DNA of 64,000 bases, taken from Botryllus schlosseri. Lineage: Eukaryota. The DNA lies in assembly GCA_051294905.1 (NCBI GenBank), contig CM119372.1, positions 32,180,001 to 32,244,000 of the forward strand. Reading direction: 5' to 3'. Positions 17,808 through 58,372 of this stretch are shown here, piece by piece; positions within the stretch are counted from its first letter, which is position 1, and every line of letters starts with the position of its first letter. The position numbers and the translations under genes are program-made. Under the pieces are notes generated by a model. It did not search any database, was not told the origin of the DNA, and saw only the letters and a program-made list of their open reading frames with translations.

Positions 17808-20287
17808 CAGAGGTTTCAAACACGCGGCCCACGACGGCTTTTGTAATTTCAAGTATTCAACAATATATTCAGGTGACATATATCTTTTTTGAGATATAAG
17901 AATTTAAAGTTCACGCTAAAGCTACGATAAAATCACTGAAATCTATACAAACGTCACTATCACATCACTTTTAAAAGCTACCATGCGGTACAAGATGAGC
18001 TATTACGTCACATTTCTAGTTCATGATGATAACACATGACCCGTTGATGATTCGTGACTGAAAATTGTAATCCGGTTTGGTGCGACCTTCTCGTAAAATT
18101 AGTCGATTTCGGATTGACTGGGTGATTAAATAAATGTCTCGAGTTGAGTCGGTTCAAACGTTAAAATTAGAGGACTTGCGAGTCGGAACGGTGACTTGGC
18201 AATCCTACGGACGCAACGAAACTGTCATGGGGAATAGTAGTATATCAAAAGGTCGTAGCTTGGGTTGCGCAGGGTATATAGCTATATAGACAGGTCAGTA
18301 TGGCAACCATTGGTATTCTGTGACCCAGTGACGTAGGGGAGATGTGGTACCGATGGATCAAAAATTGGAAAATGATGGCTGGCCCCAAAATGTTCAGCCG
18401 AAAACAGCAGATCTTTTGCTGGCTCAGCACTTTGATACAAGCTCTACCTATCGCGCACACATACATGAATATCCGTCTTTTCGAAAAATATTTATGAGCG
18501 TTCAAAATTTGTTGCTCGAACGTATCATCGGTCCCCACCCTGTGGGTCCAATGGCACACGACCCGGGGACCTATGAGACATACTCTCAAAAACTCAGATG
18601 TGACAGCTTTTCTTGCTGTGTATATTATAGTCCAAGCTACAGCAAGCCAAAGAAGAACGTTTGATCGCAACCGTCAAAAAATAGAATTATTATTAACTCA
18701 AATGTTGCCATAAAATCACTTTTCGATTTAGACTCGATCTTATAAATTTGAGGGTACATTCATATTGCCCGAAAATCGACATTGTGACTTCCAAATACCT
18801 AGTTATAGCGATAAAACATCACATGCAATTATTACATAAAGATCTTCTGTACGTAGGCATGTTTCAGTTGTTCCAAAATTAGTATGCTTGATTATTTTGC
18901 TTGATTTGGCTATTGTATCATCGGTCCCCACCCTACGAATTTTATACATGAATCGAAAAAAATTCCACTCAAGGAAGTTATTGAATAAAATAATATGTGC
19001 CATTATATAGCCTGATACAAGCCCTACACTTCATAATAAAAATGATTGCTGGTTTGTTCGTGTTGAAGGTTACAAAGAAAAATGTATGAGTCGATTGAAA
19101 TTTAGTTTACACCCCCCAAAACAGAAAACATCTGTCAGAGACCCCATAGCTCCCGCACGTCGAAATTTTTTGTATGTGAGGAAAGATTTAGCCAGCATGC
19201 AATTGTAGACAAGCTCACGGAATGTAATCATGGAATTATCATAGAGAATTTTTCAAGTATTTTCGGTCCCAGTGATCCATCGGTACCACATCTCCCCTAT
19301 AGTTGGTTACATGCTAGGTGCTGTTGGTTCTCTTCATCCATGTTATTATCGGTGACGAGTAAGGTAGTAGAACGCTCTACAGCTGTAACACCAATGAATT
19401 CTTCGCCATTTGGACATTTCTATTCTAGGGGTTGTTAACCAGAGTCCGTAGACCCCATCGGGGTACGAAGCACCACATCAGTGTGTAAAAGATGCATTGT
19501 GGAATTAGGCCTATATGCTGTGGAATATTTTCTTGGCCAATTCGGTCAACTGGAAGATAGTCTTCGCGCTACGCGCGCTGTTATGTGTACGGGCTTTCTG
19601 ATTTTAATACAGGTACCATCAGGAATTGTGATGATAATGGACAGGGGTTACGAGAAATCATATTGGAAGCATAAGGGGTACGATCGCTAAAAAGGTAAAG
19701 AAGCAACGCTATTACTATGGATCAATAATGCTTACATTTAAGTTGTTATTGATATGTTCCAATAATAATCGAAAGCAAAATCTAACGCTGATTTAATTCA
19801 AGTTTGGCAATGACAGTAACATTAGCGTACTTATCACGACTTTATCAAAGCCAGGATTAGGCTACACCGCTCAAATGCTTTGATATCAGATCAATCTTCA
19901 GTAGATTATAAAATATGTCACATAAAATTGTGGCACGTCAAAGGTCCACTAGCTGCAGCATTATAACCCGACAGTTTTCCGATGTCATGATGCATCCTCT
20001 CGCATGATGTCTATACCTCATTGTCATTAATTGAAAAATTATGCCCGGCACGAAAACAATTTTATTCAAATATTTGAAAACGTGATCGTTTTCCGTGTCA
20101 AGCGTGGATAGTACAATAGTAAATTACATTTCCCCGATGTTTGTGGAATGCCTGTCTGCAAGGTCCCGTCAAATAAGGCGTACTTGAGAACTATACATTG
20201 GATATCCCTATTATTGATGCTGCGGCCCGTGGTGTCATCAAAAACCAGAAAATTTGCCCACGAGCACATTCGAGTTAGAAACCTCTG
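17808..20287. mobile_element. hAT-type family A copy with nested insertions
   Basis: Ends CAGAGGTTTCAAAC / GTTAGAAACCTCTG; TSD GGATATAT / GGATAGAT; homologous to 8-1523. Confidence 0.82.
18336..19297 (+). mobile_element. TA-flanked ~960-bp non-autonomous element, Tc1/mariner/pogo-like (family F)
   Basis: TIR GGGGAGATGTGGTACCGATGGATCA at both ends; TA TSD; other copies at 20297-21254 and 57428-58372. Confidence 0.9.
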
Positions 20288-20296
20288 GGATAGATA

Positions 20297-21254
20297 GGGG
20301 AGATGCGGTACCGATGGATCACTGGGACCGAAAATACTTTGAAAATTCTCTATGATAATTCCATGATTACACTCCGTGAACTTGTCTACAATTGCATGGT
20401 GGCAAAATCTTTCCTCACATACAAAAAAATTCGACGTGCGCGAGCTATGGGGTCTCTCACAGACGATTTTTGTTTTGGGGGGTCTAAACTAAATTTAGAT
20501 CGACATATACATTTTTTTGTGTAACCTTCAACACGAACAAACCAGCAATCGTTTCCATTGTGAAGTGTAGGGCTTGTATCAGGCTATATAACGGCACCTA
20601 TTATTTTTTTCAGTACTTTCCTTGAGTGGACTTTTTTCAATTCATGTATAAAATTCGTAGGGTGGGGACCGATGATACAATAGCCAAATCAAGCAAAATA
20701 ATCAAACATACTAATCATGAAACAAATGAAAGATGCCTGCGTACAGAAAATCTTTATCTAATAATTGCATATGATGTTTTATCGCTATAACGAGGTATTT
20801 GGAAGTCACACTGTCGATTTTCGGGCAATATGTATGTACTTACAAATTTATAAGTTCGAGCGTAAATCGAAACGTGATTTTATGACAACATTTCAGTTAA
20901 TATTTATTCTATTTTTGACAGTTGCGACCAAGCATTCTTCTTTGACTTGCTGCAGCTTAGATTATAATACTGAGCAAGAAAAGTAGTCACATTTGAGTTT
21001 TAGGGTATATGTGTCATAGGTCCCCGGGTCGTGTGTCATTGGACCCACCGGGTGGGAACCGATGACACGTTCGAGCAATAAATTTTGAACGTCCATAAAT
21101 ATTTTTTGAAAAGACGGATATTCATGTATATGTGCGCGATAGGTAGTGCTTGTATCAAAGTGCTGAGCCAGGAAAAGATCTGCTGTTTTCGGCTGAACAT
21201 TTCGGGGCCAGCGATCATTTTCCAATTTTTGATCCATCGGTACCACATCTCCCC
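20297..21254 (-). mobile_element. Family F element, inverted relative to the 18336 copy
   Basis: Same TIRs, TA TSD, reverse-complement collinear with 18336-19297. Confidence 0.9.
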
Positions 21255-21413
21255 TACTACTAACGGTAACGCCTTTTCAGAAAATTTACTCCTGCTGTAG
21301 CCGCTATTGAATATTTCGCATCAAATCGCCAAGTTGACGCATTTCGAAATCAATTAATCAACGTCGTAATTTAGTAAACAAGTCAATCCAATAAGGTCAT
21401 TACTGCAACAACC

Positions 21414-23564
21414 TTATTTCGGGCCATCTTTCCTTTGTCTCCGTATGAAATCTCGAAGATAATTTTTCGTCTCACCGGGCAGTGCGACCTCATCAATACA
21501 TGCAATACTTGAAGTGCGCTCCTTATCATCCATAATAGACAATATATGCTCTGCAGCGGTCGCAACATAGTAAACCATCTCCCTTGGTCGTTTCAGCGCC
21601 TCTTGAAAGATCTTTGACAGGTTCCCCGTATCGCGTAACTTAAACAAATCGTTTCCAATGAGTTCGTGGTCAGATTGCCTCGCTCCTTGTGAATGTACGA
21701 CGATTAATGTGTTGAGCAAAGCGACTATCATCTCCCAATGGTCATTTGACACTGCTTTCCCCACAATCGCACGAGCTTCCTCCGATTGTGTTATCAGCCT
21801 AAGTTTTAGTGAGTTGAGTCTGGATAAGCAGTCATTCACCGCTATCTCGATGGTGTATGCTTGGGAAAGTAAATCCGTCTGTTTAATGTACAATTGGCAT
21901 ATATCGACTAGTTCGTCCTTGCAGTCATCTATCTCACCACCATTCTCACACTCACTTAACCGAAAGTTTGGCATCGCGCCGCGGAAATGACCTGGAAATT
22001 CGGAGTGGAAAAACTGCTCGGCCGGAATACTTTTGCCGTCGAAATGTACGATCAATCGTCCTTTGGTCTTCAGTTTTGCCAGGAAGTCGTTGAACATGAG
22101 GAACCTGTCTAAAATTCGATTCATTGTTGACTTACGCAACATGTAGTACAGAAGATTCCGTCCGTGAGTGTCCAGTTGGTTTAGCAGAACACCATGATAA
22201 TCATCGCGACGGTAAGAGAGAGAACAATAAAATAATCTCCAGTTTTTCATTTCTATTAGTTTGTCTCCAATTTTGCCGATATCTCGCCCTTCCAATATGT
22301 CGTCATTGGGTTCATGATCGATCCGTCCGCAAATATTTTCAAGACATTTAAATACGATGTAGTCTGCATCCATGGGCTCGTCATTAGCGTTTATCTTAGT
22401 ATTGTTTTCTCCACCGCATAAAACAGCATCACACGCCGCTATCACACAAACCCAGAACATAGTATCGCTCGACATCCGGGATTTCAGGATTCTGAAATAT
22501 TCCATATCCTGTGCGACTATGGCTGTATCTGTCTCTGCCAGCATTTTGTTTACAAAGATGCAGCTTCTAGTTACGAAGTGACAAAATGAAATTATATTCT
22601 TTGCTTGACATTTGTCTATCCCCATCATTACGATAATGAATATGATGCGCCTAGTCAAGCTATTCAGATGCAAGGTGCGGTACGTATCCCAAACTCTTTC
22701 ATCACTATTGCCGGACGAAAAGTTTTTTTTGTAGCTTCTGCGCGCCTGTGCCAGAGTATACAGAGCGACTGTCATTGTAAGGGACTGCATTGCTACAAAG
22801 ACCCCGAACCCCAATTGAAGCAAACCGATAAAACTCGATGTTTTATCGACGCACGTTAGAGTGTTGGAAGAATTGCCTGTCCGTAGTTGAAGAAGCTCAT
22901 TTGGAATTATACAAGTTATGATTAGGTTTACGGAAGGTGCTTGACTTAACGACGCATGGAAAACTAATGCACTGAAAATTGCGGTCCAGGCGAGAACAAT
23001 ACTACATCTCCTACTGTAGACCACCCATATGTTAGTATTGTCATATTGGTCAGAAGGTAAGTAACCGCCATGTCTGAAAAGTGTCTGTATATTTCTTCGG
23101 AGAATGCGATGCTTGTCCTTTGAGTCAGCCGTTATCGGTATTACACACGAATTTTGCATCTCTACGGCGGTTATGTTCAATTCCAATATGCTCCGCCCAA
23201 TTTGAGAAATATCTGTGAGCTCTTTCTTGACACCTGTAGCATGTGTCCAGTAATTGGTAACAATAAACGTGACAATGTACGCCACAAAGGCAATCAAATC
23301 ACCGTATCGAATGTGCCAAGGAACGCACGTGTAATTACAATAAGAGTTGACAGTGTCGAACTGAGACCCGTCCAAAACAAGTGGTTCGTTTCGCACATTA
23401 CTTTTGGGCAGGCAGTTGAATTCCATCACAGGAAAAAATGCTGACAAGAACACTACCGCGAGACTGCCCTTAAAGCAATATTCTCTGCAGGTCTCCCACC
23501 ATGGCTTCATTCTCAGATTACCGAGTGTATCCTCCACGCTCAACAGATCAGCAATTAGTGACAT
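21414..23564 (-). CDS. LRRC8/pannexin-like 4-TM large-pore channel protein lacking LRRs, with ankyrin-like motifs and a C-terminal SOCS-box-like segment (~716 aa, single coding exon)
   Basis: Only long ORF in the window; first ATG at 23564 (gaaATG). Motifs collinear with LRRC8A: MKPWWE ~ LKPWWD; FNCLP ~ MICLP; LDGSQFDTVNSYC..VPWHIRY ~ LDRHQYNYVDAVC..LHWFAKY; TNYW ~ SNFW; YSRR ~ YMRQ; YTL....RRSYKK ~ YTL....RRSLKK. Four hydrophobic segments and four extracellular Cys. Confidence 0.88.
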   Translation of the reverse strand: MSLIADLLSVEDTLGNLRMKPWWETCREYCFKGSLAVVFLSAFFPVMEFNCLPKSNVRNEPLVLDGSQFDTVNSYCNYTCVPWHIRYGDLIAFVAYIVTFIVTNYWTHATGVKKELTDISQIGRSILELNITAVEMQNSCVIPITADSKDKHRILRRNIQTLFRHGGYLPSDQYDNTNIWVVYSRRCSIVLAWTAIFSALVFHASLSQAPSVNLIITCIIPNELLQLRTGNSSNTLTCVDKTSSFIGLLQLGFGVFVAMQSLTMTVALYTLAQARRSYKKNFSSGNSDERVWDTYRTLHLNSLTRRIIFIIVMMGIDKCQAKNIISFCHFVTRSCIFVNKMLAETDTAIVAQDMEYFRILKSRMSSDTMFWVCVIAACDAVLCGGENNTKINANDEPMDADYIVFKCLENICGRIDHEPNDDILEGRDIGKIGDKLIEMKNWRLFYCSLSYRRDDYHGVLLNQLDTHGRNLLYYMLRKSTMNRILDRFLMFNDFLAKLKTKGRLIVHFDGKSIPAEQFFHSEFPGHFRGAMPNFRLSECENGGEIDDCKDELVDICQLYIKQTDLLSQAYTIEIAVNDCLSRLNSLKLRLITQSEEARAIVGKAVSNDHWEMIVALLNTLIVVHSQGARQSDHELIGNDLFKLRDTGNLSKIFQEALKRPREMVYYVATAAEHILSIMDDKERTSSIACIDEVALPGETKNYLRDFIRRQRKDGPK

Positions 23565-25809
23565 TTCAGTAGAACCCGCAGAGCTCGTATAATGGACTGA
23601 TCTTAAATAATACGCATTAAAGCTGTTAGATTTTTCGAATCGAATGGTAGTTTGGACAATCAAAATGAGCTCGCACCAAATACAATCAAGTGTAGGACTT
23701 GATCTAGCTGGCTCCGGCGGATATTGTATTGCATCAGTTGCCCATGGGTACTGGAAATTTGCACGAACTTATGACATGATAACTTCTATCGCATGAATGA
23801 TCATAAATATACTATAGTACAGTGCGTTATATATAAGTGCGGCACTACTTCCAGTTGTTTGGTACGATAATTTCACTTCTACCACGCTAGCACTATTTTG
23901 TCACCTTTGACTGTTTTCAATATTTACTACAAAAACTGGGTTTTGAATCGTTTGATGGAGGATAGCGAACGTCGGGGAGTATTTGAGGTTATACTGAAAA
24001 TAAGGTACTATATATATCGCACGTCCGACTATGCAGCCGTTATGGTTTGGGGTGATATAATACCTTACTTCCGAAAATATTTCGAGTTTACGACATCATG
24101 TCCATATTGCACGCTGCCTTAGTAATCCGTAAAACTACCTACGACTAACCGTCATTTTGTAGGATTCACTAGGTAAAAGAATATAATTGTAAATGATCCA
24201 TTCAATTACACAGCCATACTATAAACAGCAAATTATTTAACGAAACGTAACAGCATAACAAGGAGATCTATAACGAAATCACACAACGTAATGAAGACAT
24301 GCCCAGCAAACACAAAACCGTAAAAGGATCATCCGGGATCATCTCGATTAGGTTCTGATTTTCTAAGTGTCGAGGGAATGTCTAAAATACGTAGTAGGAT
24401 GGTCTTGTGGTTATATTCAATCAGAATAAATTCATACTCGGTGTTGTTCCATCTCATGCATTAGGCTTCGTTATATCCGGTAGTTAACCTAATAATGCAA
24501 ATTTTCTATCTCTCGCGGGTACGACTAAAATACGTAGAAAGGATGACTTTGTCGGTACATTCAATCACGATGAATTCTATCCGGTTTTGTTCGATCTCAT
24601 GCGGTAGCTTCGTTCTATCCATTAGAAAACAATGTTCTCCCTTCGTTTTATTGCGTGAGGATGTCACCGGTGTTGTATATTCGTGTTGTTGCTCTAAGGT
24701 CGAATAGTTTTGTTTTTCTCTGATATATATGATCTTCATTATATATATATTCGCTCTTTCGGTAATCTCGCATGTTCAACGAGTATGGTTAATAGTTTTA
24801 TTTAGAGAATAACTAAATAAGTGATATGTTGTACGTTTAGGAATATGATTATCGATGCGTGACTTCTAGAATATTTCGGCGATTCAAATTTTACGTCATC
24901 GCGCCATAAAAAGATTTGAAGCGCAACAGGTCGCAGCCAGGCATAGTTCGCTCTTTCTGTATGGTAAATGCCGTAAATATATAGGAATTGTGACTGACTG
25001 AGGTAGCGGGTTAAAGGTATATATGCAGTAGCATATAGCTTATGGGGTATTTCGAATTGCCTGTAGTATATGACGCCTAGAGCTGTTTGACTTTCTGCAA
25101 AACAGGTGTAGATAACTATAGAAAAGTTTCAGCTTTTCCAGGTTAGAATTAGAGCTAAACCGTTTTTCCGAATTAGATTACAATTATATTGCTGGCATTT
25201 CGCTCTAATTTAGTGAAATTAGACCACTATAATTCGCTTCAAACATCTGAATTACCGGTACCTATACCTACGGTATATCATAATATTTATGCTTGAATTT
25301 TCTAGGTATATAAGTCATATAGATACATTCCTGTAGAACACTGATTCATGATTTTATAAAAGTTGGTGCAAGAATGGACATTTTCAACTTGATGTTGATT
25401 AATGGAGCAAAATTTGATATTTGAGTGCAATTATACCTCGAATCCAGTGACAAGATTATTAATCGTTGAAACCAAACGCAGCTTGATTATGTTGGCCCAG
25501 AGAATTTGGCTAGCCAGACCATATTGATGGAATATGGTCACAGTAAGATAATATTTTGGGCTATTTTACATGAACTTTCTGACATTTGATTTGATATGTC
25601 CACTAAAACAGTTGTTATTCTGCTTTCGAATAAGACCTTAATTGCTGGTTTCAATGGTAACTGTGTTTGTCAAAGGCTGCAAAGGTAATTTCTTTTCCTT
25701 GTTAGATGTTTATTTGTTTGTTTGTGGTGTTCATGGTGGTGGTTCGACTACACTGGTCATTTTACACCAGGCTGGTTCTTATTATTATTATTCCGTATCT
25801 GCCCGATTA

Positions 25810-26645
25810 CCAGTGAACTCGGCACTTAGTGAATTCGGCCGCACAAACTCGGCACTTGGTGAATTCGGCCGTGGTAGATCTCGTAGCGGTACCGGTCACC
25901 ATGATTGGTTACTGGAATGTTTGCCGGTGAACTTGGCACTTTGAGTGGTTGTCAATGTTGTACGGCGGTCAGGGCATGCGTAGATCACACAGTCACGGCG
26001 TGATTAGATCACAGATTGCGTAATTGCGGGAAATAACGCGACGCTCTTCACTTGGTGAACTCGGCCCTTGGAGGAATTGGCACTAGAACACCTTCGCATT
26101 AGAAATGCATTTAGTATGAATGAACAGTATCAAAAAGGAAATTTAAACGTGTCGTGGCTGGTGGTAGATCTCGTAATCTTGGGATCCTTCAACCGTGTTA
26201 TCGAGACACCCTAATCCCAGAGTGGAATCGTCTCTCCAAAGGCAAAAAATAATTTATTTTGACGTGATCATGCGAAACATTTGTTGATGAGGAACACTGG
26301 CTTGTCGTGATCGATAAAAGAAGAAGCGCCGCTTGATGTTCCACAGTTTTGATCTCACATACAACGCCAAGATCCATCTTCTCAAAACTTACACGACACA
26401 GGCCCGTGACTCACGCCATCGATTCCAAGCAGACCGCGCGTGGTCGGTATATTAGCGCTGTGTTATTTACGCAATCCGTGATCTAATCACGCCGTGACTG
26501 CGCGATCTACGGATGCCCTGACCTCCTTACAAGATTGACGAATCACTTGATAATACTATTATTAGTTTGATAATTCATATTAATAGCTGTAAATACACTT
26601 CATTTCAAAATTTCCCGAGGGCCGAATTCACCAAGTGCCGGGTGC
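25810..26645. repeat. Concentric inverted repeats (MITE relic)
   Basis: GGCACTTGGTGAATTCGGCC (tandem, ~25820-25870) vs GGCCGAATTCACCAAGTGCC (~26620-26640); AGTCACGGCGTGATTAGATCAC (25991) vs GTGATCTAATCACGCCGTGACT (26478). Confidence 0.65.
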
Positions 26646-27257
26646 ATCGGCAACCATCTGCCCACTTACAGCACGGCCCACTCCTGGGCTTTTTAAGACA
26701 TGGCTATGCGAATCAGATGGGGAGGAGGAGCCTAGATAAACGGCCAACACTTCGGTAGGAATTATGGAGTCGACGTGTCACGCTAGAACCCACAATTCAT
26801 TGGTGTTTAGCTATAATGGAACGTACCACTACGTTTCCTCGCCATACCTTGTAAAATGAGACCATAGCATTTGGCATTTCGTGTGGCAATTGACTTTTGT
26901 GTGGATAATTGTGTTCGTTTTAGAACTTATCCGAAACTTTTATTCCGTCATAGATTGTATATGATAAAACAATATCGGAATTGATCCTAGAAGAATTCCA
27001 AAGCAACTCACCACAAAGGAGGATTTAAAGAAGTTTGCAAGAGATGTGGTATGTTGAATCTGCTTTGGTATTTTTAAATAGGCCTACTTTGTTGTGCCGA
27101 TAGCAGACAGTATATATAAACGTAAGATGTGGAAGCTGTCAAGGTGTTTTTAGAAATTCAGTCAGTCAAAGTGGACGATCGTATTGCTTGGATTATATTT
27201 AGGCTTATTTTAGCATCTTTGAGATGCAACTCTAAACGTGGACGGTCATGAACAGTA

Positions 27258-57291: not shown

Positions 57292-57427
57292 TCATTTCAA
57301 TATGAATATACTATTTAATTGTATATAGAAGTCATTGTACAAAATGTAAGAGTAACATGAATTGATGGTATCATTGGAAACAATGTTCTGACATGGCAAC
57401 TTCAATTGGAACAAGACATACTATGTA

Positions 57428-58372
57428 GTGGGAGATGTGGTACCGATGGATCAAAAATTGCAAACTGATCTCTGGCCCTTTAATATTCAGTCGAGAACAG
57501 CAGATATTTTGCTGGCTCAAAACTTTGACCTAAGCTCTACCTATCGCAGACATTTACATGAATATCCACCTTTTCAAAAAATAATTATGAACGTTCACAA
57601 TTTGCTGCTCGAACGTATCATCGGTCCCTCCCCGATGGGTCCAAAGGCACACGACCATGGGACCTATGAGACGTACGCTCAAACACTCGAATTTCTCATC
57701 TTGTTTTGTTGTGTACTATAATCTAAGCTACAGTAAGCCAATGAAGAATGTTTCGTCGCCACCTTAAAGATTGAAATAGATTACATCATCTGAAATGTTG
57801 GCGTAAAATCACGCTTCGATTGACGCCCAAACTTACAAAATTGAAGGAACTACCCGTAAATCAGCATTCTGACTTTCAAATACCTCGTTATAGCGATAAA
57901 ACACCACAGGTAACGATGATTTGTGGCGTCTAGGATATGTAGGCGTGTTTCTGTTGTTAAGTGATTAGTTGGTCAAAATATTTTGCTTGATTTGGCTATG
58001 GTACCATAAGCTCCCACCCTATAAATATTGTAATTGAATTGAAACTGATCCACTCGAAAATGTATTTAATTAAAAATATGTGGCATTAAATACCCTGATA
58101 CAAGCCCTACACTTCACATTAAAAATTATGGCTGGTTTGTCAGTATGAAAGGTGATATAGAAAAATGTATATGTCGATCCAAATTTATTTTACACCCGCA
58201 AACATAAATCATCTGTCACAGACCCCATAACTCACGCAGGTCGAAGTTTTTCGCATGCGAGGAAAGATTTTGCCAGCATGCCATTGTAGACAAATTCGCG
58301 TACTTTAATCATGGGATTATCACATGTGAATTTTTCAAGTATTTTCGGTCCCACTGTCTCATCGATACCACA
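57428..58372 (+). mobile_element. Older, diverged family F copy
   Basis: Left TIR GGAGATGTGGTACCGATGGATCA; collinear with 18336-19297; right TIR decayed. Confidence 0.85.

Follow-up and report, generated by a model that had tools for sequence, protein, structure and literature searches.

What kind of protein is encoded by a gene whose product begins like a subunit of an LRRC8 channel and carries none of the leucine-rich repeats (LRRs) of the LRRC8 proteins? The question is raised by an open reading frame (ORF) in a 64,000-nucleotide stretch of the Botryllus schlosseri genome (GenBank assembly GCA_051294905.1, contig CM119372.1, positions 32,180,001 to 32,244,000), which is referred to below as the window and from whose first letter all positions without a contig label are counted. 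The window lies on the contig that we call C2, in a genome of 495.5 Mb and 219 contigs. An initial annotation, made from the letters alone, had described an uninterrupted ORF of about 716 amino acids at 21414..23564 without giving its strand; ORF listing and translation bear this out as an ATG-to-stop ORF of 716 amino acids on the minus strand. We consider it fairly probable that the locus is a real, maintained single-exon gene for a four-pass subunit of an oligomeric large-pore channel, in which a pore of the LRRC8 type is combined with a new cytosolic regulatory domain.

The frame around this ORF is open for 784 codons, up to 23768, and is the longest of five stop-to-stop frames of at least 150 amino acids in the window. 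Since the runner-up comprises 227 amino acids, the ORF is not a product of chance. Its start (MS...) and its C-terminus are common to an 80% identical orthologue, P0002, and to the paralogues, and from the shared C-terminus and stop codon we argue that the protein ends at 21417. Nucleotide similarity to the paralogues spans 21428 to 23566 only, i.e., it ends at the borders of the ORF, and the flanks are made up of unrelated dispersed repeats; for these two reasons, the idea that the gene is cargo of a mobile element was rejected. Contigs of run X17 match the ORF with zero to two differences, which is not independent support as X17 is possibly the source sample of the assembly. Leaving aside the ORF itself and six opposite-strand frames within it, the remaining 137 of the 144 frames of at least 70 amino acids in the window were compared with Pfam at E 0.001 and gave no match, whereby shorter exons escape such a scan. 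Besides the LRRC8-like gene, the window is thus gene-poor as well as repeat-rich. The possibility of missing LRR exons nearby, onto which the ORF might be spliced downstream, had been raised by the initial annotation and is rejected as far as these 137 frames reach.

Residues 1-351 are homologous to the pore domain of the LRRC8 proteins, and nearer to it than to pannexins or innexins. String searches recover all six of the LRRC8A motifs looked for (KPWW at residue 20, CLP at 51, LDGSQ at 64, NYW at 104, YTL at 269, and RRSYKK at 275), and the cysteine pair proposed for the second extracellular loop (EL2) corresponds to C218 and C238. Compared with Pfam by itself, the protein reaches 15.1 bits and E 0.012 with Pannexin_like (PF12534), whose cut-off is 25 bits, and matches nothing else at E up to 10. 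Its placement consequently rests on the family profile and on the predicted structure. In a search of the Protein Data Bank (PDB), the single sequence retrieves LRRC8D chains at E 0.0036; the parts that HMMER can align with LRRC8D are the KPWW segment and residues 62-109. A full-length alignment of 16 sequences matches 26 LRRC8 chain sets with E-values from 1e-10 to 6e-7. A profile of the membrane domain built from 21 sequences (A4) finds LRRC8D at E 1.4e-21 across transmembrane helices 1 to 4 (TM1 to TM4), LRRC8A at 9e-20, and LRRC8C at 2e-18. All 50 matches of this profile at E 0.01 or better belong to two groups, namely 26 LRRC8 chain sets (1.4e-21 to 1.4e-12) and 24 sets of pannexin-1 and pannexin-3 (1.4e-5 to 2.4e-4).

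The family alignments point to further common features. Among the query protein and 35 relatives, nine of the 36 proteins pass the Pannexin_like cut-off; the Innexin profile PF00876 matches neither the query (E up to 10) nor any of the 35 relatives (E up to 1 or 0.01). Each extracellular loop contains two cysteines (C51 and C76, C218 and C238) that, like L14, P21, and E24, do not vary across an alignment of 33 family sequences. Gly66 aligns with the constriction Phe within the "LDFQQY" of LRRC8D, a position at which close relatives carry G, Q, D, V, or K. In a language-model search, the pore domain of the paralogue L016 adjoins pannexin clusters with a score of 0.94. A further result of this search, one "hypothetical protein" cluster in which Innexin and Pannexin_like labels are mixed and Chordata are the commonest group, is treated as a lead only. 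A Protein Atlas search with the query gave no usable match.

The predicted structure agrees with this assignment. An AlphaFold2 model of the whole protein has a mean predicted local distance difference test score (pLDDT) of 80.5 and a predicted template modelling score (pTM) of 0.71. Foldseek finds 58 PDB matches to it at E ≤0.001, with an LRRC8 chain in each of the matches listed, a best E-value of 2.1e-6 (probability 1.00), and template modelling scores (TM-scores) of up to 0.70 on pore-only LRRC8 chains. VIA-align superposes residues 1-351 of the model on residues 2-413 of human LRRC8A (7xzh_B) with Z 17.5 and a root mean square deviation (rmsd) of 4.6 Å over 310 aligned residues, and the alignment stops where the LRR region of LRRC8A begins. 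The 26 LRRC8 entries with Z 15.5-17.5 are followed by pannexin-3 (13.1), connexin-32 (13.1), and INX-6 (13.0), pannexin-1, -2, and -3 and INX-6 being found at Z 12-13. The initial annotation had called the N-terminal half LRRC8-type and pannexin-related, and had allowed for the outcome that it matches neither LRRC8, pannexins, nor innexins by profile or structure. With the family profile, Foldseek, and VIA-align in agreement (LRRC8D at E 1.4e-21, LRRC8A at Z 17.5), the claim stands and that outcome did not occur.

Passages of PMC6363415 describe LRRC8A as having an N-terminus of about 20 residues, an EL1 in which a strand precedes a helix, an EL2 with two strands, and intracellular loops with three helices (IL1) and four helices (IL2). 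In the model, the same list of elements is reproduced, from the N-terminus through EL1 and EL2 to the three helices of IL1 and the four of IL2, including the disulfide-stabilised extracellular cap typical of the large-pore superfamily that is formed by the EL1 strand and helix and the two EL2 strands (Table 1). According to further passages of the same source, the LRRC8 pore is lined by the N-terminus and TM1, and its extracellular constriction, a ring of basic or bulky residues, is formed by Arg103 in LRRC8A, where it governs selectivity, by Leu or Phe in LRRC8C/E/D, and by Phe in LRRC8D (PMC6363415).

Beyond residue 351 the likeness to LRRC8 ends. The cytosolic domain of LRRC8 proteins consists of about 15-17 leucine-rich repeats. 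In the 716-residue protein, no LRR family of Pfam is found at E up to 10, and the core pattern L..L.L..[NC] does not occur a single time, neither in its strict form nor with a relaxed hydrophobic pattern, so that the C-terminal part is indeed devoid of LxxLxLxxN repeats as the initial annotation had stated. Moreover, residues 352-716 match no Pfam family at all at E up to 10, and a profile of nine C-terminal domains retrieves no PDB chain at E up to 10. Residues 335-716 were modelled on their own, with pLDDT 85.3 and pTM 0.86. Pfam, the pattern search, and this confident model together uphold the view that the LRR domain is absent and another cytosolic domain is in its place.

The structural searches with this model were less specific. 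Foldseek returned no match at E 0.001 or better, its best rows being generic armadillo or designed repeats with TM-scores of about 0.2. A VIA-align comparison with 48,161 representatives gave one row at Z ≥8 (8.1 over 72 residues), and a second comparison with the top list of Foldseek likewise gave one (8.2 with rmsd 11.7). Residues 548-716 superpose on about 140 (130-155) residues of ARM/HEAT proteins such as importins, beta-catenin, SF3B1, and the ARM domain of SPIN90, with an rmsd of about 4 Å and Z 6-7.7. However, Z-scores of 6-8.2 are within chance for helical repeats by the calibration of VIA-align itself, and neither Pfam nor the PDB profile search adds a sequence signal for ARM/HEAT; residues 352-545 were barely searched structurally as a separate unit. 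Residues 352-716 are thus predicted to form an irregular alpha-helical solenoid that fits into no recognised family and lacks a clear relative among solved structures.

Within this solenoid, two parts can be told apart. An hhalign comparison of the C-termini of the query subfamily (A5) with those of the main subfamily on contig C3 (A6) gave a probability of 91.7% and E 8e-7 over 132 columns, corresponding to query residues ~339-476. This membrane-proximal module, which ends in G-R-x-[IL]-L-[YF]-Y, is homologous between both subfamilies. The part that follows is specific for the subfamily, and the invariant columns of A5 reveal the conserved motifs HFDGKS, W-E-x-I-V-A-L-L-N, and V-x-TAAEHIL in it. 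Taken together, the architecture of the family is an LRRC8-type pore followed by a shared helical module and a variable helical tail.

The initial annotation had read the tail as ankyrin-like and SOCS-box-like, i.e., as a module of the ASB type that might couple the channel to ubiquitin ligase recruitment. The ligase in question would be that of Elongin B/C and Cullin-5. We now regard this reading as very improbable. Ankyrin repeats are tandem repeats of 33 residues, and a SOCS box consists of a BC box (L-x-x-x-C-R-x-x-I) and a Cul box (L-P-x-P). With the ASB proteins, the 716-residue protein shares its all-helical, repeat-like character and a resemblance over 17 columns at its extreme C-terminus: the last 50 residues are modelled as three helices, and I-D-E-V-A-L-P-G-E-T-K-N-Y-L is the best local match of hhalign to the L-P-x-P ... 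Y-L half of the SOCS boxes of this genome. By eye only, D-x-x-G-R-x-L-L-Y-Y is loosely reminiscent of the ankyrin TPLH turn. As a positive control, a genome search with Pfam SOCS_box (PF07525) retrieved six loci at 37-46 bits, none of them in the LRRC8-like family, and the six genuine SOCS boxes, when aligned, have L, C, R, I, and P invariant. Against these six, hhalign assigns the tail a probability of 0.8% over 17 columns, with the Elongin-binding BC box outside the aligned part; counted by eye, the invariant L, C, R, and I are replaced by H, I, M, and K at residues 673, 677, 678, and 681, so that the protein has no BC box. Neither Ank nor SOCS_box of Pfam is found in the query (E up to 10), in 17 relatives (E up to 1), or in 18 more (E up to 0.01). 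The empty PDB search with the C-domain profile argues in the same direction, and no ankyrin or SOCS-box chain is among the 50 rows listed in either of the two VIA-align lists. The only ankyrin-bearing rows among the matches listed for the C-domain model are two DARPin-armadillo fusions (Foldseek E 0.03-0.14, TM-score about 0.23), residues 352-545 having hardly been searched on their own. Thus, the SOCS-like motif resemblance seen by the earlier reader is real but insignificant, and the ASB-like reading finds no backing in Pfam, the PDB profile search, Foldseek, VIA-align, or the comparison of SOCS boxes.

The gene is a member of a lineage-restricted birth-and-death family with at least 60 loci. 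The census of the genome was made by single-protein searches with the query and the paralogues L016 and L009, which yielded 32, 74, and 59 matches, respectively, at E 0.001 or better. They resolve into at least about 60 distinct loci, mostly single open frames of 300-1063 amino acids that are arranged in tandem arrays. The main arrays are located on contig C3 at 23.53-24.05 Mb; further arrays are dispersed on C3 (12.2-12.9, 18.1, 26.3-26.7, 29.7-29.9, and 35.03 Mb), C7 (26.79-26.92 Mb), and C14 (22.8-22.9 Mb). Several copies carry stops or frameshifts. Three genes are close relatives of the query, two of them intact and located on C7 (60% identity) and the third on C12 (41% in the genome search). 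Within the C7 array, at 26.906-26.917 Mb, the copy L004/L006 is broken by a single stop or frameshift, and L007 and L008 are in pieces with several stops, side by side with intact genes. On C2 itself, about 8 kb past the right end of the window and on the same strand, a decayed fragment (L025, C2:32252106-32252375) resembles query residues 581-668 with 38% identity and contains one TGA and one TAA; from its sequence, it looks like the remnant of a second family copy at the same locus.

The long tails of L026, L027, and L028 (C3:26.31-26.70 Mb; 780-1063 amino acids) show the motif W-x-x-[LIV]-x-x-L-L ... S-I-L-[FY]-Y-A two or three times, and L028 has a low-complexity insert of proline, serine, and alanine in addition. 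None of the three has a Pfam match. The C-terminal module may hence be a unit that can be duplicated.

In the query and the 35 relatives, 36 scanned proteins in all, Pfam found neither an LRR nor any other recognised C-terminal domain. As not a single scanned member carries an LRR, the family perhaps never had one, and to speak of a replacement may be wrong history. Of the "domain-swapped family member" of the initial annotation, the absent LRR and the presence of another domain hold, whereas the swap is doubtful. The pore may have been joined to the C-terminal domain independently of its fusion to LRRs.

Outside this genome, 13 relatives at E ≤0.001, five of them at E ≤1e-30, were retrieved when 1.84 billion representative proteins were searched exhaustively with HMMER, which marks the family as narrow within the protein library searched. 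The nine relatives that were looked up are all sequences from run assemblies or metagenomes, and the exact sequence of the query does not occur in the collection. A word-indexed protein search led from the query to P0002 only, and an alignment of 33 sequences (A7) again to P0002 only among 5437 candidates; this index misses the family. In the genome, the best PF12534 match scores 33 bits, so that a canonical LRRC8 was not detected, which argues against a vertebrate host. The genome search returned two Pannexin_like matches, where at least nine proteins pass the cut-off, and with this low sensitivity the lack of any match in the corresponding searches for Innexin, COX1, GFP, Bindin, mir-2, and mir-103 does not show that these are absent.

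Comparison of homologues speaks for purifying selection, which the initial annotation had named as a test. The ratio of nonsynonymous to synonymous substitution rates (dN/dS, Nei-Gojobori) was computed against the C7 paralogues L002 and L003. It is 0.24-0.25 for the whole protein, with 0.20-0.21 for the pore domain and 0.28-0.29 for the C-terminal domain, at a synonymous distance (dS) of about 1.1; between the two C7 genes it amounts to 0.35. All comparisons thus fall within 0.20-0.35. The orthologue P0002, a full-length protein, is identical to the query by 95% in the N-terminus and TM1 (20 of 21 and 21 of 22 residues), by 89-90% in the extracellular loops, by 69% in IL2, and by 74-80% in the C-terminal domain. 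This pattern fits a constraint on those parts which, in LRRC8, make up the pore lining. The frame-broken paralogues L004, L007, and L008 give a picture of what unconstrained copies look like. By these measures, the gene is intact and under selective constraint.

If the homology holds at the level of assembly, the subunits would form a hexamer- or heptamer-like ring whose large central pore is bordered by the N-terminus, TM1, and the EL1 helix. The cytosolic solenoid would hang beneath this pore, in the position that LRRC8 proteins give to their LRRs, and could act as a regulatory or partner-binding module. Paralogues might plausibly mix as subunits, as in LRRC8 heteromers. As the residue equivalent to the constriction is a glycine (Gly66) instead of the arginine of LRRC8A, strong anion selectivity would not be expected.

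Several points weigh against a maintained channel gene of this kind. The match to LRRC8 structures comes from a predicted model and not from a solved structure of the 716-residue protein, which by itself stays under the Pannexin_like cut-off (15.1 vs 25 bits). The closest canonical poly(A) signal lies about 500 nucleotides beyond the stop, within a repeat. Two RNA runs with the same species label, taken as raw reads and sampled at about 6% and 3% of their reads, show zero depth over 21404-23972, save for the 3'-most bin of the single-cell run with a mean depth of 0.73, or about three reads. The orientation of these reads would suit a transcript of the minus strand, given what we presume to be the chemistry of 3'-tag libraries; three reads are too little to claim expression of the gene, and the RNA check proposed by the initial annotation came out almost empty. 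For every member of the family, oligomer, pore, and conductance are attributed by homology, and the role given to the C-terminal domain is conjecture throughout.

Two other explanations were considered. The pore fold might have been kept as an oligomeric membrane scaffold that does not conduct, the proteins being fast-evolving receptors or signalling platforms, e.g., in innate immunity or self/non-self recognition, whose solenoids bind cytosolic partners. Birth-and-death families with pseudogenes are typical of recognition genes, and ARM/HEAT-like solenoids usually bind proteins. The large tandem array with its pseudogenes, the variable C-terminal tails, protein lengths from 300 to 1063 amino acids, and the exchange of the constriction residue among close relatives (G, Q, D, V, K) would all be in keeping with such a role. 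A scaffold, however, would be expected to conserve its subunit interfaces, whereas it is the pore-lining N-terminus and TM1 that are best conserved in the orthologue and across the family. Moreover, the extracellular loops, 89-90% identical in the orthologue, are not hypervariable. We consequently rate a non-conducting scaffold as rather unlikely.

More unlikely still is that the locus represents a silent or dying recent duplicate, unexpressed, which has not yet acquired a stop codon. The nearly complete lack of RNA reads in two runs would be accounted for in this way, as would the isolated position of the gene in a repeat-rich, gene-poor stretch with 137 other frames lacking a Pfam match, the decayed family fragment about 8 kb past the window, and the several pseudogenes among the paralogues. 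Yet the copy is old, as the nearest paralogues are 60% identical with dS of about 1.1, and its frame has nevertheless stayed open for 784 codons, at a dN/dS of about 0.25 in both domains. A full-length orthologue with 80% identity exists, and the RNA sample covers 3-6% of two runs only. The reading as a functional, constrained gene for an LRRC8-type channel subunit is hence the one that we prefer over both.

How, then, does this channel subunit compare with known systems? With LRRC8A-E, the subunits of the vertebrate volume-regulated anion channel (VRAC), it shares every element of the pore domain as far as LRRC8A residue 413 (Z 17.5), the N-terminus of about 20 residues with KPWW, and the possession of a large folded cytosolic C-terminal domain. 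In contrast to LRRC8, this domain is an unrelated alpha-solenoid without leucine-rich repeats in the Botryllus protein, identity in the structural alignment is as low as 12-16%, and Gly66 takes the position of Arg103 in LRRC8A and of Leu or Phe in LRRC8C/E/D. Furthermore, the family comprises at least 60 intronless genes, and this in a non-vertebrate. The four-helix large-pore fold and the two conserved cysteines per extracellular loop are shared with pannexins and innexins. However, both measures favour LRRC8, with E-values 16 orders of magnitude better and Z-scores about 4 units higher than for this group, and pannexin and innexin C-termini are short compared with the folded domain of 365 residues found here.

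Lrrc8 genes are not known from invertebrates according to a passage of PMC6363415, and passages of the same paper and of PMC3928549 have LRRC8 arise when, as chordates originated, a pannexin-type pore became fused to an LRR domain. In literature listings and text passages, we found no description of LRR-less or invertebrate relatives of LRRC8. The paralogues above the Pfam cut-off are probably labelled automatically in public databases. The family shows the LRRC8-like pore to be either older or more modular than the account of "pannexin plus LRR" implies. In addition, it offers a natural experiment on the contribution of the LRRs to VRAC gating and volume sensing, with the same type of pore coupled to a different cytosolic sensor.

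A wider proposal, which we put forward as speculative and think unlikely to hold in full, is that the large-pore channels have, besides pannexins/innexins and LRRC8, an uncharacterised third branch in the form of this family. As a sister or precursor form of vertebrate LRRC8 without LRRs, it would have expanded to at least 60 intronless genes in a non-vertebrate bilaterian with neither a canonical LRRC8 nor an innexin detected, would supply the large-pore and possibly the junctional channels of the animal, and would use the alpha-solenoid as a gating sensor instead of the LRRs. Passages of PMC6391747 and PMC9949713 report that echinoderms and hemichordates lack innexins and connexins and are nevertheless electrically coupled. 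If the host belonged to a lineage of that kind, the family would be a candidate for the missing channel proteins.

Table 1. Coding sequence and parts of the LRRC8-like protein, with positions in the window and the basis of each assignment.
Residues	Feature	Position	Strand	Basis
1-716	Complete single-exon coding sequence, 716 codons plus TAA stop at 21414-21416	21414..23564	-	ORF listing, translation
1-351	LRRC8-type pore domain (N-terminal coil, TM1-4, EL1, EL2, IL1, IL2)	22512..23564	-	VIA-align, Foldseek, family profile
1-21	Cytosolic N-terminal segment ending in KPWW	23502..23564	-	HMMER alignment to LRRC8D N-terminus
22-43	TM1	23436..23501	-	Helix 22-43 in model
44-87	EL1 with strand 49-53, helix 66-80, C51, C76, NYT sequon at 77, Gly66 at constriction-equivalent position	23304..23435	-	Model, alignments
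88-108	TM2	23241..23303	-	Helix 88-108; top-scoring stretch against LRRC8D and Pfam Pannexin_like
109-178	IL1 with three helices, 112-129, 133-139, 150-166	23031..23240	-	Model
179-211	TM3	22932..23030	-	Helix 179-211 in model
212-242	EL2 with strands 215-220 and 234-240, C218, C238, NSS sequon at 231	22839..22931	-	Model, alignment
243-283	TM4 and cytosolic extension	22716..22838	-	Helix 243-283 in model
284-351	Intracellular linker, counterpart of LRRC8 IL2, with four helices, 294-314, 318-333, 335-343, 345-351	22512..22715	-	Model; LRRC8A alignment to chain residue 413
352-476	Membrane-proximal helical module common to all subfamilies, ending in GRN-LLYY motif	22137..22511	-	hhalign A5 vs A6
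477-716	Subfamily-specific C-terminal part; 548-716 ARM/HEAT-like helical stack	21417..22136	-	Model, invariant columns of A5

The surroundings of the gene contain several repeated elements. Just 3' of it, an element of about 970 bp is present in two inverted copies (18333-19300 and 20294-21257) that are 90.6% identical, and a third copy with 78% identity lies 36 kb away at 57425-58372. Partial copies of 80-81% identity are found beside the paralogue L002. A read depth in the thousands identifies the element as a dispersed repeat, and the inverted pair may be the two arms of one inserted element.

Upstream of the gene, about 740 bp from the start codon, a segment of 527 bp (24302-24828) is 97.9% identical to a stretch located about 230 bp upstream of the very distant paralogue L016 on C3, and its orientation towards the gene is the same in both places. 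The segment draws RNA reads and is in part duplicated in tandem (24358-24478 and 24501-24620). It is probably a young mobile element; a regulatory cassette shared by both genes is a less favoured possibility. Farther upstream, reads of both RNA runs are spliced from 25682 to 26952 with GT..AG borders. Loose read ends flank 26952-27037, which suggests a small internal exon of a plus-strand transcript; no frame recognisable by Pfam is found there.

Elsewhere in the genome, a full-length let-7 match that includes the exact canonical mature sequence was identified (L038, C11:13146872-13146939); as let-7 is not known outside bilaterians, it indicates a bilaterian host. Another contig carries a tandem pair of let-7-like hairpins with a spacing of about 140 bp (L039, C9:17372761-17372974). 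The three let-7 matches at these two loci score 42.6-46.3 bits, all of them under the Rfam gathering score.

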